Assembly: GCA_964632265.1 (NCBI GenBank)
Contig: CAZWCL010000001.1
Span: forward strand, 1 to 29,270
From: an uncultured Hyphomicrobiaceae bacterium
GTDB lineage: Bacteria > Pseudomonadota > Alphaproteobacteria > Rhizobiales > Hyphomicrobiaceae
Direction of reading: 5' to 3'
DNA: 29,270 bases
Below are positions 3 through 28,340 of the stretch, piece after piece. Both the position numbers and the translations under genes were made by a program. The notes under the pieces are model-generated. The model saw nothing but the letters and a program-made list of their open reading frames with translations. It did not search any database and was not told the origin of the DNA. Numbering within the stretch: position 1 is the first letter of the stretch; each line of letters begins with the position of its first letter.

Positions 3-917
3 TTTGAACTTCTCGTTCTCGGCGCGGCTGCCGGCGGCGGCCTGCCCCAATGGAATTGCGCAACATCCAACAGTGCAGCGGTCTGGCGGGGAGATCCGTC
101 AGTCGCGGTCGCAACGCAGTCCTCGGTCGCCGTCGGGACCGCGGGCCACTGGACTTTGCTGAACGCTTCGCCCGATATCCGACAGCAAATTCTATCTCAG
201 CCGAAACTGCATCCAACTGCGGTGCCGGGGGATCAGAAACGGCGCTCGCCGATCGGTGCCGTCCTTTTGACGGATGGCGATCTTGATCATATCACGGGAC
301 TCTTATCGTTACGGGAGCGGACCCCGTTCCGACTGATCGCAACCCAGACAACATTGTGCGGATTAGCGGCCAACCCGGTTTTCGATTCGCTCTCGCCAAG
401 CATTGTCGAACGTGAAACGGCAAACCTTGGTCAATGGGTTCATCTCGCAAATGGATTACGCGCACGACTGTTCGCGGTGCCCGGTAAAGTCCCGCTCTAT
501 CTGGAAAAAGCGCAATTGCCGTTGCAAACAGACGAGGTCACCGACGGAACGGTCGGGGTCGAGATGAACGATGGTGCAAGAAAATTTTTCTATGTTCCAA
601 GCTGCGCAAAAATGACCGCCGACTTAAAAGACAGAATTCAGGGTGCCGACCTGGTGCTGTTTGATGGCACGGTATTTCACGACGACGAACTGATCAAATG
701 TGGTGTCGGCGAAAAGACGGGGCGGCGCATGGGACATATGCCGATGTGCGGGCCAGGCGGATCGGTGGAGGCGTTTCGCAGCATCGATGTAGGCCGCAAA
801 ATCTATATCCATATAAACAACACCAACCCGGTCTGGCAGACGGAAAGCGAAGAACGGTTTTTATTGGAAGAAGCGGGCTGGGAGATCGCATATGACGGCC
901 TGGAGATTAGTCTGTGA
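3..917 (+). CDS. pqqB: PQQ biosynthesis protein PqqB (metallo-beta-lactamase fold), 5' end lies outside the window
   Basis: Frame is open from nt 3: FELLVLGAAAGGGLPQWNC...TQSSVAV...LLNASPDIRQQI, LTDGDLDHITGL, GHMP, HINNTNP are PqqB hallmarks. The ORF-track start at 156 is internal. Confidence 0.95.
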   Translation, partial: FELLVLGAAAGGGLPQWNCATSNSAAVWRGDPSVAVATQSSVAVGTAGHWTLLNASPDIRQQILSQPKLHPTAVPGDQKRRSPIGAVLLTDGDLDHITGLLSLRERTPFRLIATQTTLCGLAANPVFDSLSPSIVERETANLGQWVHLANGLRARLFAVPGKVPLYLEKAQLPLQTDEVTDGTVGVEMNDGARKFFYVPSCAKMTADLKDRIQGADLVLFDGTVFHDDELIKCGVGEKTGRRMGHMPMCGPGGSVEAFRSIDVGRKIYIHINNTNPVWQTESEERFLLEEAGWEIAYDGLEISL

Positions 918-1678
918 CCGACACCGACCCAATCAAAGAAAGACTGACGCCTGACGCGCTTGAGGCACATCTGCGCGCCATCGGCGAGGAACGCTATCAT
1001 CGCCGTCATCCGTTCAACGAACGCCTGCACCTCGGGCGGTGCACTTTGAATGAAGTTCGCGCATGGGCGCTCAACCGCTATTGTTACCAGCGCACCATAC
1101 CGCGTAAAGATGCAACCGTTCTTGCCCGTTTAGATGATGTTGAAGCCCGGCGCATCTGGCGCCGGCGGATCGTGGATCATGACGGTGATCCCGGAGACGC
1201 GCCGGAAGGCGGCCTTAGGCGCTGGCTTGCGCTCACGGATGAACTTGGTTTCGAACGGGATTACGTCGTTTCGCAGCAAGGCGTCCTGCCCGCCGTCCAA
1301 TACGCCAGTGAGGCTTATGTAAACTACGTCGCGTCTCAACCGGTCCTCGAAGCGATTTCCTCCAGCCTCACCGAGATGTTTTCGCCCACCGCGATCCAGG
1401 AGCGCGTCAGCGGCATGCTTCGCCACTACGATTTTATCACCCCGAACGCCTTGCGCTATTTCGAACACCGTATGAGCGAGGCACCGCGAGATGTCGATTT
1501 TGCCCTCGACTATGTCAAACGCAATGCGACAACTGCGGATCTGCAAAACCGCGTCAGCGCCGCTCTCCGTTTCAAGTGCGATGTGCTTTGGGCGCAGCTT
1601 GACGCGATCCATTACGCCTATGTGGTTGCTGAACCGCCGCCCGGTGCCTGGCGTCCTCCCTTGGCCTTGAATTCTTGA
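914..1678 (+). CDS. pqqC: Pyrroloquinoline-quinone synthase PqqC
   Basis: RYHRRHPF, WALNRYCYQ..IPRKDA, RIVDHDG, SSLTEMFSP, APRDVDFAL, FKCDVLWAQLD. GTG start overlaps the pqqB TGA (GTGA at 914-917). Confidence 0.95.
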   Translation: MTDTDPIKERLTPDALEAHLRAIGEERYHRRHPFNERLHLGRCTLNEVRAWALNRYCYQRTIPRKDATVLARLDDVEARRIWRRRIVDHDGDPGDAPEGGLRRWLALTDELGFERDYVVSQQGVLPAVQYASEAYVNYVASQPVLEAISSSLTEMFSPTAIQERVSGMLRHYDFITPNALRYFEHRMSEAPRDVDFALDYVKRNATTADLQNRVSAALRFKCDVLWAQLDAIHYAYVVAEPPPGAWRPPLALNS

Positions 1679-1698
1679 AAAGGGGGCAGTGCGAACGC

Positions 1699-3162
1699 AT
1701 GGATGGTTTATCGAGTTCGACCCGGGTGAGGATGCTGCACGGCACGCGCCTCCACTGGTGCGCGCGGCGGCAAGCGCCATACCTTATGGTCCCCGAAAGG
1801 GCGCTGGAGCTAACGCCGACGGCGCACGCCGTTTTGTCTTTGGTTGATGGCCGCAATTCGATCGGAGATATCGCGGCAAAACTCGCGACTAAATACGATG
1901 CTTCGCAGCCGCACATCGAGCGCGATGTCATGGCGCTGCTCCATCCCCTCATTAGCGATCGCAGTCTTGATTGCGGCAACAACGCTTCCTGCGGGCATAC
2001 CGCGACGGCTTCGAAGACAGCAATTCAGTCCCCCAAAATGTCTGAAGCAACGCCGAGACATCGGCAGGCATCCAGTAGGGCGCCCCGCCCCATCGCAATG
2101 CTCGCGGAGCTCACTCATCGCTGCCCGCTGAGCTGCCTTTATTGCTCAAACCCGGTGCAGCTTACCCGGCGAAGCTCGGAACTTGAGACAGAAGAGTGGG
2201 GCCGTGTCTTCGATCAGGCCGTCCAACTCGGGGTCCTGCAGGTTCACTTATCCGGTGGGGAGCCGGGAGCACGGCGCGATCTGGCCGAACTGGTTGAGGC
2301 AGCCTCTACATCGGGCCTTTATACCAACCTGATCACATCGGGTGTCGGATTGAAGCCGGATACCATAGACGCCTGTATCGACGCCGGCCTGGATCACATT
2401 CAGCTCTCAGTGCAGGCGGCAGATGAGGCAACCAGCAAAGCTGTATCCAGACGTTCGGGTGCCCTCGCGCTCAAGAAGCGGGTCGCCGATCAGGTCGTTT
2501 CACGGGGGCTGCCGCTGACGGTAAATGCCGTGGTTCATCGTTGTAATATCCACCAGTCCCAAGACCTTGTGAGCCTTGCCCTCGAGTGGGGCGCGCGGCG
2601 GATCGAGATTGCACATGCGCAGTATCATGGCTGGGCGCTTCTCAACGCCGAGACCCTGAAGCCAAACCTCGACCAGGTGATCACTGCGACCAGTGTCGTC
2701 GAACACGCGAGACGCGAATTAGCGGGTGTGCTCGCGATCGATTACGTAAAACCCGATCACTTCGCGCGGTATCCCAAAGCCTGCATGGGTGGATGGGGAC
2801 GTGTTGGACTCAATATCACGCCGGATGGAAAAGTGCTGCCATGCCATGCCGCCGAGACCATTCCCGGCATTGTGGCTGACACTGTCCGCGAGATGAGCCT
2901 CGAAGACATTTGGTTCGGGGGCGCTGCGTTCCAGATGTTTCGCGGCACGTCGTGGATGCAGGAGCCCTGCCGAAGCTGTCCGCGTCAAGAGCTTGATTTC
3001 GGTGGCTGCCGCTGTCAGGCCTTCGCGCTGACCGGCGATGCAGCAGCGGCCGATCCAACGTGCGAGCTTGTGTCTGGAGGGGCCGCCGTGGCTTTTTTGG
3101 AGGATGCCGCCCCCTCGAACAAGCATCCAATCTATCGGTCCATGTCCAGGAAACCTGGCTGA
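1699..3162 (+). CDS. pqqE: PqqD (RRE chaperone)-PqqE (radical SAM/SPASM peptide cyclase) fusion; alternative TTG start at 1675
   Basis: N-terminal ~90 aa are PqqD-like (LMVPERALEL..AHAVLSLVDG..SIGDIAAKLA.KY.A...IERDV). They continue with no stop into AELTHRCPLSCLYCSNP (CxxxCxxC), GGEP, and SPASM motifs CMGGWG, PCH, CRSC, GGCRC, DPTC. Confidence 0.9.
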   Translation: MDGLSSSTRVRMLHGTRLHWCARRQAPYLMVPERALELTPTAHAVLSLVDGRNSIGDIAAKLATKYDASQPHIERDVMALLHPLISDRSLDCGNNASCGHTATASKTAIQSPKMSEATPRHRQASSRAPRPIAMLAELTHRCPLSCLYCSNPVQLTRRSSELETEEWGRVFDQAVQLGVLQVHLSGGEPGARRDLAELVEAASTSGLYTNLITSGVGLKPDTIDACIDAGLDHIQLSVQAADEATSKAVSRRSGALALKKRVADQVVSRGLPLTVNAVVHRCNIHQSQDLVSLALEWGARRIEIAHAQYHGWALLNAETLKPNLDQVITATSVVEHARRELAGVLAIDYVKPDHFARYPKACMGGWGRVGLNITPDGKVLPCHAAETIPGIVADTVREMSLEDIWFGGAAFQMFRGTSWMQEPCRSCPRQELDFGGCRCQAFALTGDAAAADPTCELVSGGAAVAFLEDAAPSNKHPIYRSMSRKPG

Positions 3163-3203
3163 TGTAGAATTTCGGCAATGGCACATCCCAACGGTCTTGT
3201 GGC

Positions 3204-3234
3204 TTGACGTTCCACTGGGCGGAACGTTTACGGT
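3204..3234 (+). promoter_or_regulatory. MerR/CueR-type sigma70 promoter with operator dyad
   Basis: -35 TTGACG (3204-3209), 19-bp spacer, -10 TACGGT (3229-3234). Perfect dyad ACGTTCC-N7-GGAACGT (3207-3227) versus the CueR consensus ACCTTCC-N7-GGAAGGT. Lies directly upstream of the copper efflux unit. Confidence 0.8.
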
Positions 3235-3264
3235 GCAAGAGAAATTCGGGGTAAATGTTGGCGC

Positions 3265-3738
3265 ATGAGCGACGCACGCCATATTCTTGGACAATCAGCG
3301 GCCACTGTGGTTGCCGCTATTGTATTGCTGTTTGTGTTCGCGGCGGCGGGCCATGCAGGCCACAGCGAACATAATCACGGGCCCCATGTTCAGACTGCGT
3401 CCCCGGCGTCGATGACGGCGCAAAAACGCTCCCATACTCATCTGCGCACAGCTAACAGCCACCACACTACGCCGACCCGGACAGCAACGCTGTGCCCGAT
3501 GACGCTGTCTCAATCTCACTGCGAAATGTGTTTCGACTTGTTCGCCGTGAACGTCATGGCAAGCGGTCCCCGCAAATTCCTGACAGCGGTTTTCTTTAAA
3601 GCAGATCACGCCTTTTGGCGTCAGGCGAACAGGATCTCGCGGCATTCGTCACAAGAAAACCGCGTCCGCGGACCTCCCAGCCGAATTGCGCCTCGAATCT
3701 GCCGAATTGTCGCTCTTCGGAGCCGGTTGCGCATCTAG
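3265..3738 (+). CDS. His-rich exported protein with CxxC and RGPP motif (DUF2946/CutF/CruR-like leader, putative)
   Basis: Hydrophobic signal-like segment (aa 12-29), 13 His, CEMC at 3520-3531, RGPP at 3667-3678. First ORF after the CueR-type promoter and upstream of cusB. Confidence 0.65.
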   Translation: MSDARHILGQSAATVVAAIVLLFVFAAAGHAGHSEHNHGPHVQTASPASMTAQKRSHTHLRTANSHHTTPTRTATLCPMTLSQSHCEMCFDLFAVNVMASGPRKFLTAVFFKADHAFWRQANRISRHSSQENRVRGPPSRIAPRICRIVALRSRLRI

Positions 3739-3801
3739 CCGACCATTTGCCCCCGCACGCGCTGAGAAGTACGCGACCCAGCGCGCCGCACCGGGGTTCT
3801 G

Positions 3802-3838
3802 ACGCATAGGGGCCGACGATTGTCGGCTGGCGATGCGT
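3802..3838 (+). other. Stem-loop in the leader-cusB intercistronic region
   Basis: GCCGAC-gatt-GTCGGC (3812-3827) nested inside ACGCAT (3802-3807) / ATGCGT (3833-3838). Confidence 0.4.
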
Positions 3839-3883
3839 GCGAGCCAAATTTCTCGAAATCTTCGTCCAGCCAAAGGATGCACC

Positions 3884-5716
3884 ATGTGCAGCCAGTGTCA
3901 CCGCACACGGCGCCGCCGCGCAGCCGTCGTCGCCTGCTTGCCTATACTCCTGATTGCCCAGCCGTTAGGGACCGGCCTTGTCAATTCCGTTCACGGTGGA
4001 GGCTCCGACACGCCAACATACAGCACGCTCTTCGGGGGTGAGGCCTTTGCCGCAGAAGCCAAGGCTTCAACCGACCCAGACCTCATAAAATACACCTGTC
4101 CGATGCACCCCCACTACATTGCCGACGAGATGGGGACCTGCCCAATCTGCGGCATGGATCTGGTCAAGTTAGAGACCGGAGACTCGCTGGGCTCAACCGC
4201 AGGCGAGGGCCGCACCGTCATCACCGTTGCGTCCGAGACGATCCAGAACATGGGCGTGCGTCTCAGTAAGGCCGAACTGTCGAGCTTCGGCCGCGGGCTG
4301 CGCAGCTACGGCATCGTTCATGAAAACGAGCGCCGCCAGACGGAAGTCACCGCCCGTGTCGAGGGTTGGATCGAGGAACTCGAGGTTACAGCCGTCGGTG
4401 ATACCGTCAAAAAAGGCGATCTCCTCTTCAAACTCTACTCGCCGCAATTGATTATCTCGCAAGGCGACTTCCAGCGATCGCGCGGCAGCCGAGACCTTGC
4501 CGGTCGCGGGGAAGGCCAGTTGCGCTCTTTCGGCGTCCAGGAACAAGCCTTGGCGCAAATCAAGCGTCGCGAACGACCGATGCAGCTTGTGCCCTTCTAC
4601 GCTGAACAGGACGGTACGATTTCCGAACTCGCCTTGCGCCAGGGCACCTACGTCAAGCGCGGCATGATGCTCGCCAAGATCCAGGATTATTCAAACGTCT
4701 GGCTGCGTGTCGGCGTCCCGGAAAAGGATCTTGGCTTCATCTCCCGCAACACACCCGCTCTCGTTTCATTTCCCAATCTGCCGGGCCGTCAGGTGAGCGC
4801 CGTCGTCGACTACATCTACCCCACTGTGGACACCAAAACCCGGACCGGCCAGGTCCGGCTCGTCATCTCAAATGAGGACGGCATGATCCGTCCCGGCAGC
4901 TACGCCGACGTCACCTTCGAAGTTGGTTCCGAGAGGCGCCTCGCCGTACCCTCGGAAGCGGTCTTGCGCAGCGGCGCGGGTCGATACGTCGTCGTCTCTC
5001 TCGGTGAGGGCCGCTTTGAGCCCAGGCTGATCGAGGCGGGCCTGATTTCCAATGGACGGACTGAAGTCAAACAAGGCGTGCTTGAAGGCGAGGACGTCGT
5101 CGTCTCCGGTCAGTTCCTGCTTGATAGCGAAAGCGCGTTACGTGAGTCGTTCCGCAAGTTGCAGAAGCTGCAGGTGCCACTGTCGCTGCTGAAGCTGACC
5201 AAAAACGAATTCGCGATGTTCGATCACCTGATCGATGCCTCGCTCTACGTGCACGAAGCCCTGGTCGACGGCTACGACGTGATACCACAGCAACTCGACT
5301 CCGCGATCTCGATCAAAAAGCTGATGTGGCCTCGATACAAGAACACGCAACTTGCGTTCGTCCTTGTGGACGCAGTGAAGGCGCTCAAACAGGTCCAAAC
5401 CGCGCGTACGGAAAGTGAGGTCCAGGCGGCACTGACGACGCTCAACAACGCTCTACGTGCGTGGGTTTTGAAAGGGGCGCCGGAGCATTACAAGTCCAAG
5501 AAGCTTACGGTCTTCCGTGATCTTAAATCGGACCGCATCTGGTTCCAGGTGGGCGACAAACCTTTCAACCCGTTTGTGCGTGGCGGCGGCGAATTGATCG
5601 CTTATCCGGAGGCACAAAAACGGCCCGCGAATTCAGCTGCCAACGAGCCGTCCGATGTAACCGAGACCACTGCTGCGAGCACTGCTGCAAAACCGGGAGC
5701 GCACAGTGGCCACTGA
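3884..5716 (+). CDS. cusB: CusB-family RND periplasmic adaptor with N-terminal heavy-metal-binding domain and ~180-aa C-terminal extra domain
   Basis: YTCPMHP...CPICGMDL, ARVEGWIEEL, LYSPQL, IYPTVDTKTRTGQVR, LIRPGSYADV, SGQFLLDSES. Start 3884 chosen because AAGGA precedes it; the ORF-track start is 3833. Confidence 0.9.
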   Translation: MCSQCHRTRRRRAAVVACLPILLIAQPLGTGLVNSVHGGGSDTPTYSTLFGGEAFAAEAKASTDPDLIKYTCPMHPHYIADEMGTCPICGMDLVKLETGDSLGSTAGEGRTVITVASETIQNMGVRLSKAELSSFGRGLRSYGIVHENERRQTEVTARVEGWIEELEVTAVGDTVKKGDLLFKLYSPQLIISQGDFQRSRGSRDLAGRGEGQLRSFGVQEQALAQIKRRERPMQLVPFYAEQDGTISELALRQGTYVKRGMMLAKIQDYSNVWLRVGVPEKDLGFISRNTPALVSFPNLPGRQVSAVVDYIYPTVDTKTRTGQVRLVISNEDGMIRPGSYADVTFEVGSERRLAVPSEAVLRSGAGRYVVVSLGEGRFEPRLIEAGLISNGRTEVKQGVLEGEDVVVSGQFLLDSESALRESFRKLQKLQVPLSLLKLTKNEFAMFDHLIDASLYVHEALVDGYDVIPQQLDSAISIKKLMWPRYKNTQLAFVLVDAVKALKQVQTARTESEVQAALTTLNNALRAWVLKGAPEHYKSKKLTVFRDLKSDRIWFQVGDKPFNPFVRGGGELIAYPEAQKRPANSAANEPSDVTETTAASTAAKPGAHSGH

Positions 5717-8700
5717 TCCCCAGTCAGACAACGGGACTGGTCATGATATCGCGGGCCATGACCCGACGCTCTCTGGCGTCGCCAAGATCATCGACTGGTC
5801 GGTGCGCAACCAGTTGCTCGTCATCATGGGGGCTCTGGCTCTCATCGTTGCCGGCTGGATGTCCCTCAAACAGACGCCGCTCGATGCCATCCCGGACCTA
5901 ACCGATACTCAGGTCATCATCCGCACGGAGTTTTCAGGCCAGTCGCCGCAGATCGTCGAGGATCTCGTCACCTACCCGCTGTCAACCGCCATGCTCGGCT
6001 TGCCGAAAACCAAGTCTGTCCGCGGGTTTTCGATGTTCGGGACGAGTTTCGTCTACGTCATCTTCCAGGACGGCGTCGACCAGTATTGGGCACGATCCCG
6101 AGTCATCGAGGCATTGTCGACGACCGGCGCCAATCTTCCTGCCAATGCCTCTCCGCGTATTGGCCCCGATGCAACCGGCGTCGGCTGGGTTTTCCAGTAC
6201 GGCTTGGTCGACAAGACCGGCAAGCGCGATCTCGCAGAGCTGCGCTCGTTGCAGGACTGGTTCGTGAAATTCGAACTCGCGACGGTCCCAGGCGTATCCG
6301 AAGTCGCCTCCGTCGGCGGCTTTGTGAAGGAATATCAGGTCCTCGTCGACCCAAACCGGCTGCGCGCCTACAACGTCCCGCTCGATCGCATAATCTCAGC
6401 CATCAAATCCGCAAGTGGAGAGGTTGGCGGCCGGGTAATCGAGCAGGCGGAAACCGAACTCATCGTACGCTCGACCGGATACATTCAAACACTAGAACAA
6501 CTTGGCGATGTGGTTGTTTTTTCCGAGAACGGAACGCCAGTAAAACTTGATGATATCGCCCGCCTCGTGGAAGGTCCGGAGCTACGCCGCGGCGTGGTCG
6601 AGCTCAACGGCGAAGGCGAAGTGGTTGGCGGCATTGTCGTCATGCGTTCCGGCGCCAACGCGCTCACTGTTATCGAAGGCATCAAAAGCAAGCTTGAGGA
6701 GATCAAGCAAGGACTGCCCGAGGGCGTCGAATTCGTCACCGTCTATGACCGCGCGCCGCTAATCGAAGGCGCAGTCAAATACCTTGAGCACAAGTTGCTC
6801 GAGGAAGCCTTGGTCGTTTTCCTCGTGTGTCTCATCTTCCTGCTACACGCACGGTCGGCGCTCGTCGCAATCATTACCCTGCCGCTCGGCATCCTCGGCG
6901 CCTTCATTGTGATGGCGCAGCAGGGCATCACGGCAAACATCATGTCGCTCGGCGGAATCGCTATTGCCATCGGCGCAATGGTCGATGCCTCGATTGTCAT
7001 GGTCGAAAACGCACACCGAAAACTTTCCGACATGGGCGACGAGGCGACTCCGGACGAACGGCGCGAAGCGCTGTTGATATCGGCCAAAGAAGTCGGCCCG
7101 GGCCTATTCTTTTCGCTGCTGATCATCACCGCGTCTTTCCTGCCGGTTTTCGCGCTGACCGGGCAGTCGTTCAAGCTGTTTGCGCCACTCGCCTACACCA
7201 AAACCTATGCCATGGCATTCGCGTCGGTCCTGTCAATCACGGTTGTGCCGGTTCTGATGCTGTGGCTAATCCGAGGCAAAATCCGGGGCGAAATGGCAAA
7301 CCCCATAAACTGGGTTTTCGTGCAGCTCTACCGGCCCATCATTTGGCTCGCCCTCAAGGCCCGTTGGCTCACTATCGCTCTCTCGCTCCTGGTGCTGGCG
7401 TCGGTCGCCTATCCGTTGTCGAAGATCGGCACCGAGTTCATGCCTGCGCTCTATGAGGGTGAATTGCTCTACATGCCGACAACATTGCCGGGCGTGTCGA
7501 TCAGTAAAGCCAAGGAAGTTCTGGCGCAAACCAACCGGCTCATCAAAACCGTGCCCGAGGTCGAGCGCGTGTTCGGCAAGGTCGGCCGTGCCGATACCGC
7601 TACCGACCCTGCGCCAATCTCGATGATTGAAACCTGGGTCCGTCTGAAGCCCAAAGAGGAATGGCGCGACGGGATGAATGTCCAGGACCTCGTCAAGGAA
7701 TTGGATCAACGAACCAAACTTCCGGGCCTCGTGAACTCCTGGGGCTACCCCATCAAGACCCGCATGGACATGATTTCGACCGGCATTCGTACACCGATCG
7801 GGGTCAAGATATCTGGCGGCGACTTGAAGGAGATCGAGCGCATTGCACTTCAGCTCGAGGGGGCGATCAAGGACATACCGGGCACTCGATCTGTTTTTGC
7901 TGACCGGGTTGTCGGCGGTAAATATCTCGAGATCAAACCCGATCGGCGCGAGCTTGCCCGCCGCAACATCGACCTCGCGACCTTCCAGTCGGTCATTCAG
8001 ACGGCGCTTGGCGGCATGCGGCTTGCCGAAAGTGTCCAGGGGCGCGAGCGCTACAATATCATGTTGCGTTACGACCGGCCGTTCCGCGAGACGCCCGAAC
8101 AGTTGGCAGAGGTCCTCATTCCGACGCCAACAGGGCAGCACATCCCGCTCGGCGAATTGGCCACGATCGAGGTGACCGACGGACCACCGATGCTGCGCTC
8201 GGAAAACGCACGGCTTACCGGGTGGGTATTCGTCGACATCACAGGCCGCGATATCGGGACCTATGTGGCCGAAGCTGAAAAGGTCGTGCGCGAGCAAATC
8301 ACATTGCCGTCCGGCTACGCCATCACCTGGTCGGGACAGTTCGAGCAGATGATCGAGGCGCGGGAACGCCTCTCGATTGCAATCCCTACGGCCATCTTGA
8401 TCATCTTCGTCTTGCTGATGCTGCACTTTGGCCGATTCGACCGGACTGCGATCATTATGCTGTCGCTGCCTTTCGGACTGATTGGCGGCCTTTGGGCAGT
8501 GTACCTTGCCGGCTACAATATGTCGGTCGCCGTCGCCGTGGGCTTTATCGCTCTCGGCGGTATCGCGGTCGAAACGGCAGTGGTGATGCTGCTCTACATC
8601 GACCAGCGTGTGCGCGAATTCCCGCCAAAAAGCAGGCAGGAATTGCTCGATGCGATTATTGCGGGTGCCGTCCAACGGGTCCGTCCGAAATTGATGACGG

Positions 8701-8939
8701 TGCTCGTCATCATCGCGGGCCTTCTACCAATCTTCTTTACCGACGGCATCGGCTCAGACGTGATGCGGCGCATTGCTCTGCCGATGGTCGGCGGCATGAC
8801 GTCGACAACCGTGCTCACGCTGATCGTCATTCCGGTTATCTATTATCTTTGGGAAAGCCGGCGTTTCAGACCGACCGGCGCCGCGCAAGAACCAACACCT
8901 GAACCGCCACCAGATCCGGTCCTTCAACCGGCTGAATGA
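5706..8939 (+). CDS. cusA: CusA-type heavy-metal efflux RND transporter (Cu+/Ag+)
   Basis: PLDAIPDLTDTQVII, GPDATGVGWVFQY, GAMVDASIVMVEN, RVRPKLMT. The three Met positions of the E. coli CusA metal site appear retained (LLYMPTT, PISMIET, RMDMIST). Confidence 0.95.
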   Translation: MATDPQSDNGTGHDIAGHDPTLSGVAKIIDWSVRNQLLVIMGALALIVAGWMSLKQTPLDAIPDLTDTQVIIRTEFSGQSPQIVEDLVTYPLSTAMLGLPKTKSVRGFSMFGTSFVYVIFQDGVDQYWARSRVIEALSTTGANLPANASPRIGPDATGVGWVFQYGLVDKTGKRDLAELRSLQDWFVKFELATVPGVSEVASVGGFVKEYQVLVDPNRLRAYNVPLDRIISAIKSASGEVGGRVIEQAETELIVRSTGYIQTLEQLGDVVVFSENGTPVKLDDIARLVEGPELRRGVVELNGEGEVVGGIVVMRSGANALTVIEGIKSKLEEIKQGLPEGVEFVTVYDRAPLIEGAVKYLEHKLLEEALVVFLVCLIFLLHARSALVAIITLPLGILGAFIVMAQQGITANIMSLGGIAIAIGAMVDASIVMVENAHRKLSDMGDEATPDERREALLISAKEVGPGLFFSLLIITASFLPVFALTGQSFKLFAPLAYTKTYAMAFASVLSITVVPVLMLWLIRGKIRGEMANPINWVFVQLYRPIIWLALKARWLTIALSLLVLASVAYPLSKIGTEFMPALYEGELLYMPTTLPGVSISKAKEVLAQTNRLIKTVPEVERVFGKVGRADTATDPAPISMIETWVRLKPKEEWRDGMNVQDLVKELDQRTKLPGLVNSWGYPIKTRMDMISTGIRTPIGVKISGGDLKEIERIALQLEGAIKDIPGTRSVFADRVVGGKYLEIKPDRRELARRNIDLATFQSVIQTALGGMRLAESVQGRERYNIMLRYDRPFRETPEQLAEVLIPTPTGQHIPLGELATIEVTDGPPMLRSENARLTGWVFVDITGRDIGTYVAEAEKVVREQITLPSGYAITWSGQFEQMIEARERLSIAIPTAILIIFVLLMLHFGRFDRTAIIMLSLPFGLIGGLWAVYLAGYNMSVAVAVGFIALGGIAVETAVVMLLYIDQRVREFPPKSRQELLDAIIAGAVQRVRPKLMTVLVIIAGLLPIFFTDGIGSDVMRRIALPMVGGMTSTTVLTLIVIPVIYYLWESRRFRPTGAAQEPTPEPPPDPVLQPAE

Positions 8940-8940
8940 G

Positions 8941-8983
8941 TTCGCTTTCGGATGAAAGCGAAGCCGCCCGCTCGCGGGCTTTG
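8941..8983 (+). terminator. Tandem hairpins between cusA and cusF (terminator, attenuator or mRNA-processing element)
   Basis: TTCGCTTTC-ggat-GAAAGCGAA (8941-8962, perfect 9 bp), then GCCCG-ctcg-CGGGC (8966-8979) followed by TTTG. Confidence 0.4.
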
Positions 8984-9027
8984 TCTCGGGCCTCACGTTC
9001 AAACGAACAAGCCCATCCAAAACGGAG

Positions 9028-9402
9028 ATGAATGAGATGAACATCATCAAGTTTCCAGCATTCGCTGCCACGGTCCTTGCCGCAGGCCTGTTCGGGCTCA
9101 CGCCAGCTCTTGGCCAGGACAAAAAGGAGATGGACCACGGCTCCATGAAGATGGAAGCGCCTGCTGGCGTCACAGAAGCTGAAGCGAAGGGCAAGATCAA
9201 TTCGGTCGATACCGAGGGCGGAAAGGTCAACGTGACCCACGACCCGGTCCCGACAATCGGTTGGCCCAAGATGACCATGGACCTGCCCGTCACGCGCCGA
9301 GTCGATCTTTCGACCGTGAAACCCGGTACGGAGGTGACCTTCAAGCTCAAGAAGGGCCGCGACAACCAGTTTCGCATCATTGAAATCACGCCGGCACGGT
9401 AA
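9028..9402 (+). CDS. cusF: CusF-family periplasmic Cu/Ag metallochaperone
   Basis: Signal peptide, Met/His-rich N-terminus, and VTHDPVPTIGWPKMTMD carrying the H..W..M.M ligand set. GGAG RBS. Confidence 0.92.
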   Translation: MNEMNIIKFPAFAATVLAAGLFGLTPALGQDKKEMDHGSMKMEAPAGVTEAEAKGKINSVDTEGGKVNVTHDPVPTIGWPKMTMDLPVTRRVDLSTVKPGTEVTFKLKKGRDNQFRIIEITPAR

Positions 9403-9639
9403 GTCCCTGCCGGTTCCCGGTCGCGACTGCTCATGGCGTGGCCGGGAACCTGGTGCCGACGCGAAACCGAACCGACCGGTTGAAACAGCTCAACTGATGC
9501 ACAGCGCCAATGTAATCCTTGCGGCCTCGGTTGAGCAGCGTTTGACTGATATCAATGCTTGGCTCTTGTTTCGCCGGTAGCGTTCATTGAAAGTAAAATG
9601 CCGAAACGGAATTGCTGGCCCGACTGGGCAAGAGGCTTC

Positions 9640-10650
9640 ATGCGGTGGGACTTGAAACTGGTCGCTCTCGGTGCGGCAATCTTGCTGGTCGCTGGTTTTC
9701 TCATCTTTGGCACTGCCGAAGATCAGGACGTGCCTGACGGGATTTCCTACGGCAACGGGCGGATCGAGGCGGTGCAGATCGATGTCTCGACGAAGATTGG
9801 AGGCCGCGTCGCGCACGTCTTCAAGGCTGAAGGCGATCTGGTCAAACCCAAAGAAAAGCTGGCGGAAATAGAATCGTCACAGCTCCGCGCTCAACTTCAG
9901 CGCGCCGAAGCGGAAATAGCGAGTGCCAGGAGTCAGGTCGCCCAGGCCGAGGCGCAGGTTGCCCAGGTCGAGGCCCAACTGAAGCTTGCAGAACGCGAAC
10001 TGGCTCGCGCGCAAAAGTTGGTCAGCCAAGGTCACACCAGTCAGGAAGTCTACGATACACGACTGAGCCAACGCGATGTTGCCCTCGCAAACCTTGCTGC
10101 GGCCAAGGCCATCGTCGTCTCGCGCAAGCGTGGTGTTGATGCGGCCTTGGCGGCCAAGGCCGAATTGCAAACCCAGATCGACGATACGGTCTTGATCTCG
10201 CCAACGGTTGGGCGCGTGCTGTTTCGCCTCACTGAGCCGGGAGAGGTGATACCTGCCGGCGGCAAGGTTGTCACGTTGGTCAATCTCGCCGACGTCTACA
10301 TGGAGATTTTCCTACCGGCGGGAGCGGCTCACCGGCTCGCGATCGGTTCCGAAGCTCGAATAGTTGTTGACGGGGCAGACTTTGCGGTGCCGGCGACCGT
10401 CTCGTTCGTTTCCCCTCAGGCACAGTTCACACCGAAGCAGGTAGAGACGCGGGATGAGCGTGAGAAGCTGATGTTTCGCGTGAAGGTTCGCGTGCCGCCG
10501 GACTTGGTCCATGAGCACATAGATTTCGTCAAGACCGGCATTCGCGGCGTGGCCTACGTGCGTCCGGGTCAAAATCCGCCACCCTGGCCCGCGTGGCTCG
10601 AGAGGCGTTTCCAGACGCCGGAAAGGGCAGCTGAAGGGGCGCAGTCGTGA
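9640..10650 (+). CDS. HlyD/YhiI-family membrane fusion protein of an ABC exporter
   Basis: N-terminal TM, GNGRIEA..IDVSTKIGGRV, coiled coil, VSPQAQFTPKQVETRDEREKLMFRVKV. GAGG before ATG 9640 (track start 9559). Confidence 0.88.
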   Translation: MRWDLKLVALGAAILLVAGFLIFGTAEDQDVPDGISYGNGRIEAVQIDVSTKIGGRVAHVFKAEGDLVKPKEKLAEIESSQLRAQLQRAEAEIASARSQVAQAEAQVAQVEAQLKLAERELARAQKLVSQGHTSQEVYDTRLSQRDVALANLAAAKAIVVSRKRGVDAALAAKAELQTQIDDTVLISPTVGRVLFRLTEPGEVIPAGGKVVTLVNLADVYMEIFLPAGAAHRLAIGSEARIVVDGADFAVPATVSFVSPQAQFTPKQVETRDEREKLMFRVKVRVPPDLVHEHIDFVKTGIRGVAYVRPGQNPPPWPAWLERRFQTPERAAEGAQS

Positions 10651-13415
10651 ATACGAATGCATCCGAGCCCGTCGTTCGAACGCGCGGCCTCTCCCACCGG
10701 TATGGCAATACACTCGCCGTGAACAACGTAGAGATCGAACTCCCGCGTGGATTAGCAGTTGGCCTGATCGGACCGGACGGGGTGGGCAAGTCGACGCTGA
10801 TGGGGCTTATTGCCGGGGCTCGCCGCCTCCAGCAGGGTGGCCTCCAGGTGCTTGGCGCCGACCTGGCCTCAAGTAAAGATCGTTACCGCCTATGCCCGCG
10901 CATCGCCTACATGCCGCAAGGTCTCGGTAAAAACCTTTATGCCGATCTGAGCATCCGCGAAAATCTCGACTTCTTCGGACGACTTTTCGGTCAGGGCAAG
11001 ACCGAGCGGAGGCAACGGATCGAACGCCTGACCCAGGCTACAGGGCTGCATCCATTCCTGGGGCGGCCGGCCGGCAAGCTGTCGGGGGGCATGAAGCAAA
11101 AGCTTGGGCTTTGCTGTGCCCTGATCCACGATCCTGATCTGCTCATTCTCGACGAACCGACCACCGGCGTCGATCCCCTGTCGCGTCGCCAGTTCTGGAC
11201 GCTGATTTCTACAATCCGCGAGGAACGGCCCGACATGAGCGTGCTGGTCTCGACGGCCTATATGGACGAGGCGACTGAGTTCGACTGGTTGATCGCAATG
11301 AACGATGGCTGCGTGATCGGAACCGGCGAACCAAAAGACTTAATGACCCGCACCGGCACCGATGATCTCGAATCAGCATACGTGGCGCTGCTGCCGGAGG
11401 GGGCAGGACGCGGTCAGAAATCGCTGGAGTTGCCGCCACGCACACATCAGGATGGCGGCCCCGTAATCACGGCGACCAACCTCACCCGCCGTTTTGGCGA
11501 TTTTACCGCTGTCTCGAAGGTCGATCTGACGATAGAGCGTGGCGAAATCTTCGGGTTCCTCGGCTCCAATGGCTGCGGCAAGACCACAACGATGAAGATG
11601 CTGACGGGACTGCTGCCACCGAGTGACGGTAAGGCCTATCTCTTCGGCAAGGAAGCCGATGCCGGCAGCATCGAGATGCGCCGCCGCGTCGGCTACATGT
11701 CGCAATCTTTCTCCCTCTATGGCGAACTGACGGTGCGCCAGAACTTCGAGTTGCACGTCCGGCTATTTCATCTGCCGGCGGATGCGGCGGTCGAACGCAT
11801 CCGAGAATTGGCGGATCGGTTCGACCTCACGAAGCACATGAACGACGTGTCCGGCCGCTTGTCGCTCGGCCAGCGCCAACGCATGTCGCTTGCAATTGCC
11901 ATCCTGCACCGCCCCGAAATGCTGATACTCGACGAGCCGACATCTGGTGTCGACCCGATTGCACGCGACCGCTTCTGGGAACTGCTGATCGAACTGTCTC
12001 GCGAGGAAAACGTTACAATTTTCATTTCAACGCACTTCATGAACGAGGCTATGCGTTGCGACCGCATCTCTCTCATGCATGCGGGCGAAGTGTTGGCAAT
12101 GGGGGCGCCTCGCGAACTCATCGAAAAGCGTGGTGCTGCTTCGCTCGAAGATGCATTCATCGACTACATGAGCGATGCAATCGCCGACCCAGCAGAGGCA
12201 GGGGAGAAAGATCTCCAGGTCGCGGTGGCGCCGGCAATCCAGGCAGGCGTCGTGGGTAAGGAGACGGCTCCCGGACCGCGAGCCGTCGGGCTCGATACAC
12301 GCCGTATGCTTGCCTACAGCTACCGCGAAACAATGGAGGTGCTGCGTGATCCCGTCCGGCTGGGCTTCGCCTTCATCGGCAGCACAATTTTGCTATTCAT
12401 CTTCAGCTACGGCATCACCACCGACGTCGACCGTTTGCGGTTCGCGGTTCTCGACGGCGATCGCAGTCCGATGAGCCGTGCCTACATCGCGCAGTTTGGC
12501 GGATCGCAATATTTCGAAGGCAGGCGGCTCGCAACAAACGAAGCCGAACTGGCGAGACTTCTGGCGACACATGCTGTGGAAGTTGCAGTCGAGATACCAC
12601 CGGCCTTTGGCCGGGATATCTCGCGTGGCGGCAGGCCGACCGTCTCGATATGGGTCGATGGCGCCAACACCACACGGGCTGCGAGTATGGTGTCTTATGT
12701 CCAGGGCGTACACGATCGCTTTCTCGCAAAGCGGGACAACGAGACCCGCCTGACCGCTCGGGGCGATCCGTCAGTCTCAATCGAGATGCGCTTTTTGTAT
12801 AATCCGTCATTCGAGAGCATCTATGCGGTCGCTCCGGGCGTCCCCGCGATGCTGTTGATCCTATTTCCGGCGATCCTTATGGCCGTCAGCGTCGCGCGTG
12901 AGAAAGAGATCGGCACGATTACAAACTTCTACGTAACGCCGACTCGGCGCCTTGAATTTCTGGTCGGCAAGCAGTTGCCCTATATCGCCCTGACGATGGT
13001 CAATTTCGCCATCATGACGACTGCGGTGGTTGTGATCATTGGCGTGCCGTTCAAAGGCAGCCTCGTGAGCCTGACGATTGGTGCGTTGCTTTATGCGATC
13101 GTTACAACCGGCGTCGGTCTCGTGATTGCTACATTCGTCTCTAGCCAAGTCGCCGCCGTGTTCGCCGCCGCGATCATTACAATGATGCCGACCATGCAAT
13201 TCTCGGGGTTTCTGCAGCCGGTCTCAGCCCTTGAAGGCGGCGCGCGCGTGATGGGCATGTTGTGGCCGACTACGTACTACATGCACATGAGTGTGGGCGC
13301 CGTCACCAAGGGGCTCGGCATCGCCGACCTGGCCGGCGATATGTTGGCGCTTGCCGCATTCATCCCCGTCTTCCTCTCCATCGCCATCATTGGCCTTCGC
13401 ACGCAGGAGCGCTGA
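10647..13415 (+). CDS. rbbA: RbbA-type protein: two ABC ATPase domains plus an ABC-2 permease
   Basis: GPDGVGKST/LSGGMKQK/LILDEP and GSNGCGKTT/LSLGQRQR/LILDEP, followed by a multi-TM region with REKEIGTITNFYVTP. GTG start overlaps the previous stop. Confidence 0.9.
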   Translation: MNTNASEPVVRTRGLSHRYGNTLAVNNVEIELPRGLAVGLIGPDGVGKSTLMGLIAGARRLQQGGLQVLGADLASSKDRYRLCPRIAYMPQGLGKNLYADLSIRENLDFFGRLFGQGKTERRQRIERLTQATGLHPFLGRPAGKLSGGMKQKLGLCCALIHDPDLLILDEPTTGVDPLSRRQFWTLISTIREERPDMSVLVSTAYMDEATEFDWLIAMNDGCVIGTGEPKDLMTRTGTDDLESAYVALLPEGAGRGQKSLELPPRTHQDGGPVITATNLTRRFGDFTAVSKVDLTIERGEIFGFLGSNGCGKTTTMKMLTGLLPPSDGKAYLFGKEADAGSIEMRRRVGYMSQSFSLYGELTVRQNFELHVRLFHLPADAAVERIRELADRFDLTKHMNDVSGRLSLGQRQRMSLAIAILHRPEMLILDEPTSGVDPIARDRFWELLIELSREENVTIFISTHFMNEAMRCDRISLMHAGEVLAMGAPRELIEKRGAASLEDAFIDYMSDAIADPAEAGEKDLQVAVAPAIQAGVVGKETAPGPRAVGLDTRRMLAYSYRETMEVLRDPVRLGFAFIGSTILLFIFSYGITTDVDRLRFAVLDGDRSPMSRAYIAQFGGSQYFEGRRLATNEAELARLLATHAVEVAVEIPPAFGRDISRGGRPTVSIWVDGANTTRAASMVSYVQGVHDRFLAKRDNETRLTARGDPSVSIEMRFLYNPSFESIYAVAPGVPAMLLILFPAILMAVSVAREKEIGTITNFYVTPTRRLEFLVGKQLPYIALTMVNFAIMTTAVVVIIGVPFKGSLVSLTIGALLYAIVTTGVGLVIATFVSSQVAAVFAAAIITMMPTMQFSGFLQPVSALEGGARVMGMLWPTTYYMHMSVGAVTKGLGIADLAGDMLALAAFIPVFLSIAIIGLRTQER

Positions 13416-13417
13416 TC

Positions 13418-14545
13418 GTGTGGCGACGCGTCTCGAACATCTATTGGCTTGGCACCAAGGAGGTGCGTAGTGCACTTAGGGACGGCGTGATGGTGTTTCT
13501 GATCCTCTGGGCGTTTGGGCCGGGTATTACGGAACGGTCACGTGCGCTCAAAGACAATGTCAGCAACGCCAGCGTAGCATTCGTCGATGAGGATCGCTCG
13601 GCCCTGTCACGAAGCTTGATGCGGGCCGTGCTGCCACCACACTTCCAGCCAGCGGTTCTAATCGAAGCGGACGAGATAGATGAGGCCGTCGACCAGAGCC
13701 GCTTCACATTCGTCATCGTCATTCCACCCCGGTTCGAGGCTCAAATCCGCAAGGGCCTGAAACCCGAAATCCAGCTCAATATCGATGCAACGGCAATCAT
13801 CCAGGCAGCCACCGGGGCTGGCTATCTGCAGCAGATCTTGGTCAAGGAAGTCGCACGCCATGTTGCGCGGTCGGATCCGGTCAGCGTCACGGCAGTGGAT
13901 CTGGTAACGCGGCGAGCCTTCAATCCGAACGGCAATCACATCTGGTTTCAGGCTGTTGTTGCCTTACTGGATCAGATCTCTACGTTGACGATCGCGCTTA
14001 CGGGGGCGGCGCTTCTGCGCGAGCGTGAGCATGGTACGATCGAACACTTGCTAGTCATGCCGTTATCCGCCTTCGAGATCGCAATGGCGAAAGTACTCGC
14101 CAGCGGGCTCATTATCCTTATAGCATTTTCCGTCTCTCTAACTTTTATTGTTGAGACTTGGCTCGGCGTACCGATTGCCGGTTCGCGGTTGCTATTGATC
14201 TTCGGCACAATTCTTTATTTGTTTTCCGCGGCCGCGATCGGCGTATTTCTTGGCACGATCGCGCGCACGATGGCGCAGTTCGCTTTGCTGCTCTTGATGG
14301 TGATCATGCCAATGATGATGCTTTCCGGCGGCATGACACCGATAGAAAGCCAGCCCGAGTGGTTACAACCGCTGACCAATTTCCTGCCGTCGCGCCACTA
14401 TATGTCGTTTGCGCAGGCGATCGTCTTTCGCGGCGCCGGGCTCGACATCGTGTGGCGGGAATTTCTCGCGGTTGCCGTGCTAGGCGGGATCTTCCTGGCG
14501 AGTAGCATCTTACTCTTCCGCCGCTCGATTAGCGTTGGCCGGTGA
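13418..14545 (+). CDS. YhhJ-type ABC-2 permease
   Basis: VSNIYWLGTKEVRS, LLREREHGTIEHLLVMP, MLSGGMTPIESQP, six predicted TMs. Real start is probably GTG 13418, as track start 13262 overlaps rbbA. Confidence 0.88.
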   Translation: MWRRVSNIYWLGTKEVRSALRDGVMVFLILWAFGPGITERSRALKDNVSNASVAFVDEDRSALSRSLMRAVLPPHFQPAVLIEADEIDEAVDQSRFTFVIVIPPRFEAQIRKGLKPEIQLNIDATAIIQAATGAGYLQQILVKEVARHVARSDPVSVTAVDLVTRRAFNPNGNHIWFQAVVALLDQISTLTIALTGAALLREREHGTIEHLLVMPLSAFEIAMAKVLASGLIILIAFSVSLTFIVETWLGVPIAGSRLLLIFGTILYLFSAAAIGVFLGTIARTMAQFALLLLMVIMPMMMLSGGMTPIESQPEWLQPLTNFLPSRHYMSFAQAIVFRGAGLDIVWREFLAVAVLGGIFLASSILLFRRSISVGR

Positions 14546-27434: not shown

Positions 27435-28328
27435 TCAGCGTTCACAAGCGCGGAGCGCCTGCAGCGGCGATACCGCCTTATCAATGTCACGCCAGGGGTC
27501 CTTGGTCTGGCCAAGCCGCCGGAAGATGTTGGCAATAGTGTATTTCTGCGGCGTCATGTCGGGCCTCAGCGCTTCGTCCCACGCAAGCGGCGTCGCAATC
27601 GGGGCCCCCGGCAATGCGCGGACGGCGTAGGGCGCCACCGCGGTCTGCCCGTAGGCGTTGCGTGCTGTATCCAGATAAACGCGGTCACGCCGGTCGGTCT
27701 TACGCTGCTCGGTAGTGAGTTCATCCGAGTTGGCGTCAGCCAGCGTTTTCGCAATCCGCTGGGCGCATCCTCGAACCTCATCAAAGGTGGCGGCACGCCT
27801 GAGCGGCACGATGACGTGGAGACCGCGCGAACCAGTCGTCTGGACGAAAGATTCGATGTCGTGCTGCCCGAAGAGCTTGCGAAGGCGCATGGCTGCCCGT
27901 TGCACCTTGGAAAAGTCGTCATCCGCGGGATCGAGATCCAAGATCATCCGGTCAGGCGTTTCGACCTTGTCAATGCGTGACAATCCCAGGTGCGGCGTGA
28001 TCATGCCCTGGTTCGCGAGATACACCAGTGTCGCGGGTCCGTTGATAACAACCTGACGGACCGTGCCATCTTTCTTTTCCAGTGCGGCCGTTTCAATCCA
28101 GTCGGGAAAATAGTCTGATGCGTTTTTCTGGAAGAACCCATTCTTTGCAATTCCATCCGGAAACCGCTGCATCGTCAACGCGCGGCCGCGATAATGCGGC
28201 AGCGCCGCATCGGCCACCTTGGCATAATAATCAACGAGATCACCCTTGGTGATGTCGCTTGCCGGAAAGAAGACCTTATCCCGATTGCTGATCTCAATGT
28301 CGTGGCCTTCGAGTTCGATCCGCCCCAT
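27435..28328 (-). CDS. ligD: Stand-alone LigD polymerase (primase-polymerase, PolDom)
   Basis: ISNRDKVFFP..ITKGDLVDYY, QRFPDGI...FFQKN, MILDLDP, TTGSRGLHV, YLDTARNAYGQTAVAPYAVRA. GGAGG RBS. Confidence 0.92.
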   Translation of the reverse strand: MGRIELEGHDIEISNRDKVFFPASDITKGDLVDYYAKVADAALPHYRGRALTMQRFPDGIAKNGFFQKNASDYFPDWIETAALEKKDGTVRQVVINGPATLVYLANQGMITPHLGLSRIDKVETPDRMILDLDPADDDFSKVQRAAMRLRKLFGQHDIESFVQTTGSRGLHVIVPLRRAATFDEVRGCAQRIAKTLADANSDELTTEQRKTDRRDRVYLDTARNAYGQTAVAPYAVRALPGAPIATPLAWDEALRPDMTPQKYTIANIFRRLGQTKDPWRDIDKAVSPLQALRACER

Positions 28329-28340
28329 TTAGCAAACCTC

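Follow-up and report, generated by a model that had tools for sequence, protein, structure and literature searches.

The locus described here raises the question of how one design of copper sensor can serve copper uptake genes in one case and copper detoxification genes in another. Copper-responsive arrest peptides have so far been studied in CruR and CutF, on which copper has opposite effects with respect to the ribosome stall. The window, i.e. the whole stretch of DNA that was analysed (29,270 nucleotides (nt); positions 1 to 29,270 of contig CAZWCL010000001.1, assembly GCA_964632265.1, from an uncultured Hyphomicrobiaceae bacterium), has a small open reading frame (ORF), here referred to as the leader, in front of cusB in a Cus-type efflux operon. 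It belongs to a clade of 11 loci that represents a natural experiment on this question, combining a CruR-like geometry, an arrest motif shifted away from the stop codon, and a resistance-nodulation-division (RND) efflux pump behind a CueR-type promoter. We report that the leader is probably (roughly 0.7) a copper-responsive regulatory arrest leader of the CruR/CutF kind. For the manner of its action we propose, tentatively and at somewhat below even odds, that the arrest acts as a brake on cusB and that copper releases this brake. An earlier inspection of the letters alone (the sequence-only reading) had listed a signal-like transmembrane segment, 13 His, a CEMC motif and RGPP 19 codons before the stop, and translation finds every one of these at the place given. 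The features of the leader and its promoter are as follows.

3204-3234, + strand: MerR/CueR-type promoter, read from the sequence, with -35 TTGACG (3204-3209), a 19-nt spacer and -10 TACGGT (3229-3234).
3265-3738, + strand: leader ORF of 157 amino acids (aa), a candidate CruR/CutF-like copper-sensing arrest peptide with a sub-threshold DUF2946 match and homologues 5' of cusB.
3265-3360, + strand: predicted signal peptide or N-terminal membrane helix (aa 1-32), from hydropathy, an AlphaFold2 helix and AxA-type sites in homologues.
3352-3465, + strand: His-rich stretch (10 His, aa 30-67); the mature part of the homologues begins GHGHHGH.
3493-3531, + strand: Cys block C77-x8-C86-E-M-C89 (CPMTLSQSHCEMC), its Cys residues invariant in the four closest homologues.
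3667-3678, + strand: RGPP arrest-type motif (aa 135-138), from translation and the alignment of homologues; the proportion of nonsynonymous differences (pN) over NRVRGPP is 0.15.
3679-3738, + strand: translated basic tail of 19 codons (SRIAPRICRIVALRSRLRI) and the stop codon; all homologues have a tail of 19-23 aa.

The only strongly hydrophobic segment of the leader spans aa 9-31 (Kyte-Doolittle 2.1-2.25) and is followed by AGHA/GH, at which place the homologues show canonical AKA, AQA or ALA sites. Ten of the 13 His lie between aa 30 and 67, the four Cys are at positions 77, 86, 89 and 146, and CEMC corresponds to aa 86-89 (nt 3520-3531). Nineteen residues separate the second Pro of RGPP from the stop codon TAG (3736-3738), and RGPP is the only [RHQ]-[AG]-P-P among the 8,041 aa encoded by the genes of the window. 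An AlphaFold2 model, based on a shallow 12-sequence alignment, is confident only for helix 3-32 (predicted local distance difference test (pLDDT) 78-93); the rest of the leader has pLDDT values of 39-60 and the predicted template modelling score is 0.24. CruR is likewise reported to be poorly structured, and the low-confidence model agrees with this, but the alignment behind it is shallow. Weak matches were obtained to the copper-related families SMBP and LpqS. Within the tail there is a direct repeat, GCCGAATTG, at 3680-3688 and 3701-3709, which encodes [S/C]-R-I-[A/V] twice; as SRIA...SRIV this peptide repeat recurs in the homologue P0002, which points to a duplication within the tail.

How close, then, is the leader to the known sensors? 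CruR of Bordetella pertussis (BP2923) ends in an RAPP motif at which arrest blocks Rho, so that an uptake operon stays on, and copper relieves the arrest (PMC9426467); the arrest of CruR has been demonstrated in vitro (PMC12992588). The hallmark of DUF2946/CruR is a CxxC and an RAPP at conserved spacing, in CruR at residues 90-93 and 139-142 (PMC9426467). Counted from the first Cys of CxxC to the Arg of the proline motif, the distance is 49 aa in both proteins (C86 to R135 in the leader, C90 to R139 in CruR), and in L001 and L005 it is 48-49 aa. RGPP is the most under-represented tetrapeptide across 10 major bacterial groups, and elongation factor P (EF-P) rescues neither RAPP nor RGPP arrests (PMC12992588). 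Together with HAPP and TGPP it belongs to the RAPP-like arrest motifs that have been validated by experiment or catalogued, at which the stall places the codon of the third residue in the P site (PMC10987492). The claim of the sequence-only reading that the leader is DUF2946-like, for which it had suggested a hidden Markov model search, was borne out in part. The alignment to Pfam DUF2946 (PF11162) runs from end to end in both the leader and P0002 (positions 2/4-117 of 117) with the end of the profile falling on the second Pro of RGPP, while the scores, 19.3 bits (E 0.002) for the leader and 19.6 bits (E 0.0016) for P0002, are below the gathering cut-off of 23.7 bits. As judged from its sequence, the leader is a remote DUF2946 relative or a close analogue and not a Pfam-defined member, because its score is below the cut-off and its motif is not at the extreme C-terminus.

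Related loci were collected with cusB as bait, so that the presence of a leader was not preconditioned, and then by profile searches and contig look-ups. The 11 loci, in genomes that are mostly Methyloligellaceae-related and metagenome-derived, fall into group A (the window, L082, L001 and L083), group B (L005) and a sister clade, group C (L003, L004 and L084-L087). All 11 have an ORF of 150-184 aa directly 5' of cusB(HMBD)-cusA, whose features follow one order: the signal-like helix comes first, then a His-rich or low-complexity region and a Cys motif, and after a further ~45-49 residues a proline motif and a basic tail. The tails after the Pro-Pro (PP) pair are 19-23 residues long and end R-x-R-[ILN]-stop in all homologues, and the spacers between leader and cusB range from 115 to 174 nt. 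The sequence-only reading had named the conservation of CxxC and RGPP upstream of cusB as a check; this conservation holds near the window and loosens with distance: C-x8-C-x2-C is invariant in the four closest loci and RGPP is present in three of them, with HAPP in the fourth, while the distant loci have CxxxC or CC as Cys motif and TGPP, HAPP or SDPP as proline motif. The catalogued motifs RGPP, HAPP and TGPP occur in groups A and B and in part of C.

Moreover, the leader is kept in frame across the 11 loci at identities down to 15-20%, and a regular-expression search for the C-terminal motif plus tail in all ORFs of the 87 fetched loci returned these leader ORFs only. Between the window and L082, where synonymous sites are saturated (proportion of synonymous differences (pS) 0.70), pN is 0.40 for the whole leader, 0.26 for the Cys block and 0.15 for both NRVRGPP and the tail. 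The group C leaders have a pN/pS of 0.44 over their full length, with 0.26 in the Cys block and 0.29 in the last 14 aa. On these comparisons the leader ORF is a real gene, translated and under purifying selection as a protein, tail included.

Outside these loci relatives were few. A word-indexed protein search with the leader alone gave one match, a 99%-identical copy, and full phmmer against 1.84 billion representatives gave two real relatives, P0002 (43% identity) and P0004; P0003 was rejected as a repeat artefact. Profile searches brought in the 165-aa sister clade and recovered no Pfam-annotated DUF2946 protein; weak extra matches that aligned to the His-rich low-complexity part only were rejected. 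The 12-sequence leader alignment was too divergent to serve as a search query. A genome scan with the leader family alignment found L001 again and nothing further, and scanning metagenomes with CusB yielded, besides one identical locus that is truncated, distant cusB genes (at most 37% identity) without this leader.

Upstream of the leader, the promoter contains a dyad, ACGTTCC (3207-3213) and GGAACGT (3221-3227), with N7 between the arms. A 19-nt spacer is the hallmark of promoters activated by MerR-family regulators, and TTGAC-N19-TA is kept in the nine group A and C loci that have upstream DNA (three of them judged by eye). The promoter is identical at 22 of 31 positions to that of Escherichia coli copA; of 5426 complete E. 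coli genomes, 5406 carry this copA promoter sequence 40 nt upstream of the gene. The CueR promoter named in the sequence-only reading is accordingly well founded. No sigma-70-type promoter and no + strand terminator were found by a promoter and terminator scan of 3000-4000. Using tblastn with E. coli CueR as query, no MerR-family gene was detected in the window or in four related loci, and the regulator may be encoded elsewhere.

In the mechanism that we favour, the leader-cusB-cusA-cusF operon would be driven by this MerR/CueR-type copper-activated promoter, and ribosomes translating the leader would arrest at RGPP with the P site on CCU 3673-3675 (Pro137), the A site on CCC 3676-3678 and the leading edge near 3688-3690; the register is taken from toeprints of RxPP peptides and of CruR (PMC10987492, PMC12992588). 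In the arrested state the His-rich part and Cys77 would already be outside ribosome and translocon, with the CxxC ~48 residues from the peptidyl-transferase centre. Between the footprint (~3661-3688) and 3725, the first nt able to pair with the cusB start, there would be at least 35 nt. With the stall 19 codons before the stop and ~205 nt before cusB, the ribosome therefore could neither open the cusB initiation region nor shield the downstream RNA, and thus could not act as in CruR or CutF, in both of which the stalled ribosome is at the end of the ORF (PMC9426467, PMC9973294); the sequence-only reading had overlooked this constraint. The arrest would leave the modestly C-rich tail and spacer untranslated, leading to polarity (Rho-dependent termination) and to a closed cusB initiation region. 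Binding of copper to the nascent chain would free the ribosome, as proposed for CruR, whereupon the tail would be translated to the stop and cusB expressed; with the CueR-type promoter in front, synthesis of the pump would need two copper signals.

This proposal depends on the RNA between RGPP and cusB, for which three features are relevant.

3725-3734, + strand: GGUUGCGCAU, in the last leader codons, complementary to the cusB start AUGUGCAGCC (3884-3893).
3739-3883, + strand: spacer of 145 nt between leader and cusB; its first ~65 nt lie, with the tail, in a modest stretch of C over G (~3630-3810).
3875-3893, + strand: local hairpin GGAUGCAC-CAU-GUGCAGCC, with part of the cusB Shine-Dalgarno in the stem and AUG 3884 in the loop.

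The spacer measures 145 nt because conservation of CusB begins at ATG 3884 (MCSQCH..., with the Shine-Dalgarno AAGGA at 3873-3877) and not at the first ATG, 3833, which was rejected as the start. In each of the five loci examined, C exceeds G over a stretch that takes in the motif, the tail and the early spacer. The pairing between GGUUGCGCAU and AUGUGCAGCC is present in the minimum-free-energy fold of the window, its duplex having z = -1.7, which is matched by 6% of shuffles. For the local hairpin the pair probability is 0.65-0.77 in the window and 0.8-1.0 in L082 and L001, and its sequence is conserved in the four closest loci. Owing to the poor alignment of the spacer, RNAalifold did not reveal a convincing long-range structure common to these four loci, and an Rfam scan of 3100-4000 matched no family.

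The prediction is stronger in group C. In all six of its loci the cusB Shine-Dalgarno and AUG are predicted to pair, at probabilities of 0.83-1.0, with the last codons of the leader, the stop codon and the next 28 nt. The duplex amounts to -24 to -27.5 kcal/mol (z -2.1 to -4.05), 96.9% of cells are paired vs 31-43% in slid controls, and the leader-side arm is 91% identical between the subgroups vs ~55% identity at synonymous sites. Masking the RNA with a ribosome at the stop, and not at PP, raised the predicted accessibility of the Shine-Dalgarno in four of these six loci. In L005 an anti-Shine-Dalgarno sequence, UCCUCGC, is located within the leader tail. With the mask at the PP motif the accessibility stayed unchanged throughout the 11 loci, apart from marginal changes in L086 and L005. 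As a separate observation, the first 40 nt after the leader stop in group C (3660-3700 in L003; the same in L004 and L084-L087) are 91% identical between the subgroups, in which the leader proteins are 58% identical, and are the most conserved non-coding stretch among the loci analysed.

We prefer the brake for the following reasons. Polarity classically arises where an arrest inside an ORF leaves the RNA behind it, here ~195 nt and modestly C-rich, untranslated. The group C folds indicate that cusB is opened only by ribosomes that have reached the stop codon. In the same group PP is under relaxed constraint, as would suit a brake that the operon can do without when its promoter is itself copper-activated. 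Finally, since an efflux pump must be copper-induced, the brake requires that the arrest be relieved by copper, as it is in CruR.

A number of observations weigh against this proposal. In both prototypes, CruR and CutF, the arrest turns the downstream gene on, which is the opposite sign. The resemblance to DUF2946 does not extend through the family: in the Pfam scan the other nine homologues have no match, and the two matches that exist are sub-threshold. The homologue P0006 lacks PP at the aligned site, and the PP region is the least constrained part of the leader in group C. Constraint on the tail is at the amino-acid level, and would be left unexplained if the tail were purely a spacer or part of a Rho utilisation (rut) site. 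With respect to the RNA, the C-G skew in the window is only +0.09 to +0.13, which is only at about the 90th-95th percentile of its + strand genes; the probability of the GGUUGCGCAU/AUGUGCAGCC pairing is ~0.2 vs ~0.75 for the local hairpin; and from the motif to cusB the window folds no more stably than its shuffled sequences do (z -0.04 and -0.84), which applies likewise to L001. Masks at RGPP or at the stop leave the predicted accessibility of the cusB Shine-Dalgarno and AUG in the window unchanged, and no compensatory changes were seen in the group C helix.

An extension of the proposal, which we regard as rather doubtful, is that the tail inverts the sign, i.e. that it turns a CruR-type copper-relieved arrest into a copper-opened gate for an efflux operon. 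A copper-relieved RxPP arrest at the stop would shut an uptake operon, and 19-23 added codons followed by rut-like, anti-initiation-region RNA would make the gate. Combined with the CueR-type promoter this would constitute an AND gate, sensing cytoplasmic copper at transcription and nascent-chain (possibly periplasmic) copper at translation or termination, and the conserved basic tail with its R-x-R-I ending would, in addition, serve as a second pause or a degron. If the brake and its release are true, the position of the arrest motif sets the regulatory sign and the Cus pump is under two-layer copper control; if they are false, the locus is one more CutF-like leader of the kind catalogued upstream of cus genes.

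The rival that survives best retains the sign of CutF, such that periplasmic copper prolongs the RGPP arrest and the arrested ribosome switches cusB on, by remodelling of the mRNA or by blocking Rho. It has in its favour that a stalled ribosome promotes downstream expression in both characterised systems, that in CutF copper strengthens the stall ahead of a detoxification gene, and that the leader has a Sec-type signal and a His/Cys region predicted to face the periplasm. We nevertheless consider it unlikely: none of the segments predicted to pair with the cusB initiation region lies within the footprint, masking the PP stall was without effect across the 11 loci apart from the two marginal cases, and the ~195 nt downstream of the stall would be naked RNA, so that a rut site cannot be shielded.

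Quite unlikely, in our view, is that the leader is a stable exported His/Cys-rich copper-binding protein, a sponge or a chaperone working with CusF/CusB, whose PP and tail are structural and which exerts no regulation in cis. RGPP is strongly avoided in ordinary proteins, the spacing from Cys to RGPP equals that of the proven regulator CruR, the ORF is always the first of the operon behind the promoter with a long conserved spacer after it, and the structural model has no confident fold past the N-terminal helix. The AxA-site signal peptide and the GHGHHGH at the mature N-terminus of the homologues would suit such a protein, as would the weak SMBP and LpqS matches and the selection on the amino acids after PP, so that the full-length protein would be made. 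However, CruR and CutF are also undetectable as proteins (PMC9426467, PMC9973294).

A third rival places the stall at the stop codon, similar to TnaC: RGPP and the tail ending R-x-R-I would form an arrest peptide resident in the tunnel, and a pause at termination would switch cusB on. This would account for the conservation of the tail at the amino-acid level with its invariant R-x-R-[ILN]-stop, and for the stop codon being within the group C helix with the cusB initiation region. It would also fit the greater Shine-Dalgarno accessibility predicted when a ribosome occupies the stop, and the C-rich segment directly after the stop, where a ribosome pausing at termination would sit; the unrelated HYC_CC_PP protein (see below) has PP and a 17-aa tail ending VFRI as well. 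We hold it to be very unlikely, as RGPP is itself a strong arrest motif at the peptidyl-transferase centre, where by homology the RAPP of CruR stalls, and as the stop-state mask has no predicted effect in the window; to our knowledge, no arrest motif of such a form is known. The stall at the stop and the function of a released protein stay live as rivals of the brake because the latter does not explain the conserved amino acids of the tail. Finally, a chance ORF in a GC-rich promoter-proximal region, as might be suspected from the weak codon-position GC pattern (0.59/0.53/0.61 vs 0.63/0.45/0.71 in cusB), the poor Shine-Dalgarno of the leader and the near lack of database homologues, is virtually ruled out by the frame kept in 11 loci, pN/pS well below 1 and the specificity of the pattern search.

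The operon continues downstream of the leader as follows.

3884-5716, + strand: cusB-type membrane fusion protein with an N-terminal heavy-metal-binding domain (Pfam HlyD_D23, 4.6e-60; HMBD, 3.1e-12).
5706-8939, + strand: cusA/czcA-type heavy-metal RND pump (TIGR00914, 1140.9 bits, cut-off 701; Pfam ACR_tran).
9028-9402, + strand: cusF-type periplasmic copper chaperone (Pfam CusF_Ec, 3.8e-23).

For the ORF at 3884-5716 the score against the NCBIfam CusB subfamily is below its cut-off. The N-terminus of CusB, MCSQCHRTRRRRAAV, is conserved and twin-arginine-like, with two Cys ahead of the Arg run, and reads MCNGTKC in the sister clade; ~180 residues beyond the adaptor core covered by Pfam matched no family in the Pfam scan. 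No full OEP-type (CusC) gene adjoins cusBAF, the Pfam scan giving only a weak partial OEP match inside the HlyD-type adaptor at 9559-10650. This adaptor opens a set of genes on the same strand directly after cusF (9559-14545), which further includes a 922-aa ORF with two ATP-binding cassette (ABC) ATPases and an ABC-2 permease, and a second ABC-2 permease. On the - strand, opposite the end of cusA and the whole of cusF, is a 226-aa ORF (8754-9434) that matched no family and is probably spurious. Directly upstream of the operon is a pyrroloquinoline quinone (PQQ) cluster (156-3162) with pqqB (156-917), pqqC (914-1678) and a 495-aa ORF in which PqqD is fused to the radical S-adenosylmethionine/SPASM protein PqqE. 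At the other end of the window (27435-29264, - strand) two neighbouring but separate ORFs encode a LigD primase-polymerase domain and an ATP-dependent DNA ligase, i.e. a split LigD of non-homologous end joining.

How does the leader compare with known systems? With CruR it shares that it is a small exported protein and the first ORF of a copper-related operon, with CxxC and R-x-P-P, a long spacer to the next gene (162 nt in CruR, 145 nt here) and a stretch of C over G at the 3' end. It differs in its additional His-rich region and in that the RAPP of CruR is 3 residues before the stop, whereas RGPP is followed by a conserved 19-residue tail. The operon of CruR is a copper-repressed uptake operon, in contrast to an efflux pump behind a CueR-type promoter, and the stall of CruR blocks Rho, which the geometry of the leader does not allow.

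In CutF, of the Rhodobacter capsulatus cutFOG operon, copper prolongs a stall at a terminal PPP, and the stalled ribosome melts a stem-loop over the next ribosome-binding site (PMC9973294). The leader resembles CutF in its Sec signal, Cys motif and C-terminal proline motif, in having a copper-detoxification gene immediately downstream and in the predicted structural occlusion of the downstream ribosome-binding site. In CutF, by contrast, the proline motif is an EF-P-sensitive PPP located at the extreme C-terminus, and a stem-loop follows the ORF immediately; the Cys motif of the leader is CxxC, not CxxxC, and its spacer is 145 nt. The CutF-like set of Ozturk et al. 2023 was filtered for less than 150 aa and for PP within the last 15 residues (PMC9973294). 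With 157 aa and PP 19-21 residues from the end the leader falls outside both of these limits; it agrees with the set in its signal, as judged by hydropathy and AxA-type sites alone, and in its neighbour, cusB lying 145 nt downstream. A canonical CutF-like ORF was seen in L007 (1930-2420) in front of a distant cusB (36% identity): it has 127 aa, contains CEMTLC, ends GKPPKHI-stop and is followed by a 95-nt spacer with a hairpin and U-tract resembling an intrinsic terminator or attenuator.

The RAPP-like ('RQH') peptides ApdA, ApdP and SecM are likewise small upstream ORFs with an N-terminal localisation signal and a motif (R/Q/H)-(A/G/D)-(P/G/S)-(P/G). They monitor Sec/YidC and precede secA, secDF or yidC, unlike the leader, which precedes cusB; their motif is near the C-terminus and they have no metal-binding region. 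The arrest of the TnaC leader peptide decides whether Rho terminates in the long spacer ahead of the tna structural genes. TnaC, unlike the leader, responds to free tryptophan by stalling at its stop codon and masking the rut site, and it is neither exported nor equipped with metal ligands. In L072 (1489-1884) an ORF of the NCBIfam family HYC_CC_PP (NF047658; E 7.5e-15) is upstream of an HMBD/cusB-like gene. Like the leader it is small, exported and Cys-rich, with PP followed by a 17-residue tail that ends VFRI-stop (R-[LF]-R-I-stop in the leader); unlike the leader it has the Cys motifs HYC and CC and a Bacteroidota-type lipoprotein-like signal, and the two have no detectable sequence relationship. 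The shared ending may be convergent or a shared C-terminal feature.

The sequence-only reading went too far in presenting a copper-sensing leader as a second layer of control on a Cus pump, and this as its strongest novelty candidate, since CutF-like upstream ORFs ahead of CusB, CusA, CusC and CusF are already catalogued (PMC9973294). CutF-like/DUF2946 ORFs in fact most often precede parts of RND efflux systems: OEP/CusC, ACR_tran/CusA, HlyD_D23/CusB and CusF (PMC9973294). This general link with cus genes is thus published, with no cus-linked member having been studied experimentally (PMC9973294). The combination of a CueR-type promoter with such a leader was not met in the limited literature consulted, which is not proof of its absence. 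Compared with CruR and CutF, the type of sensor is itself known, and what is new here is the arrest motif 19-23 codons before the stop, the conserved translated basic tail and the spacer of 115-174 nt that follows it.

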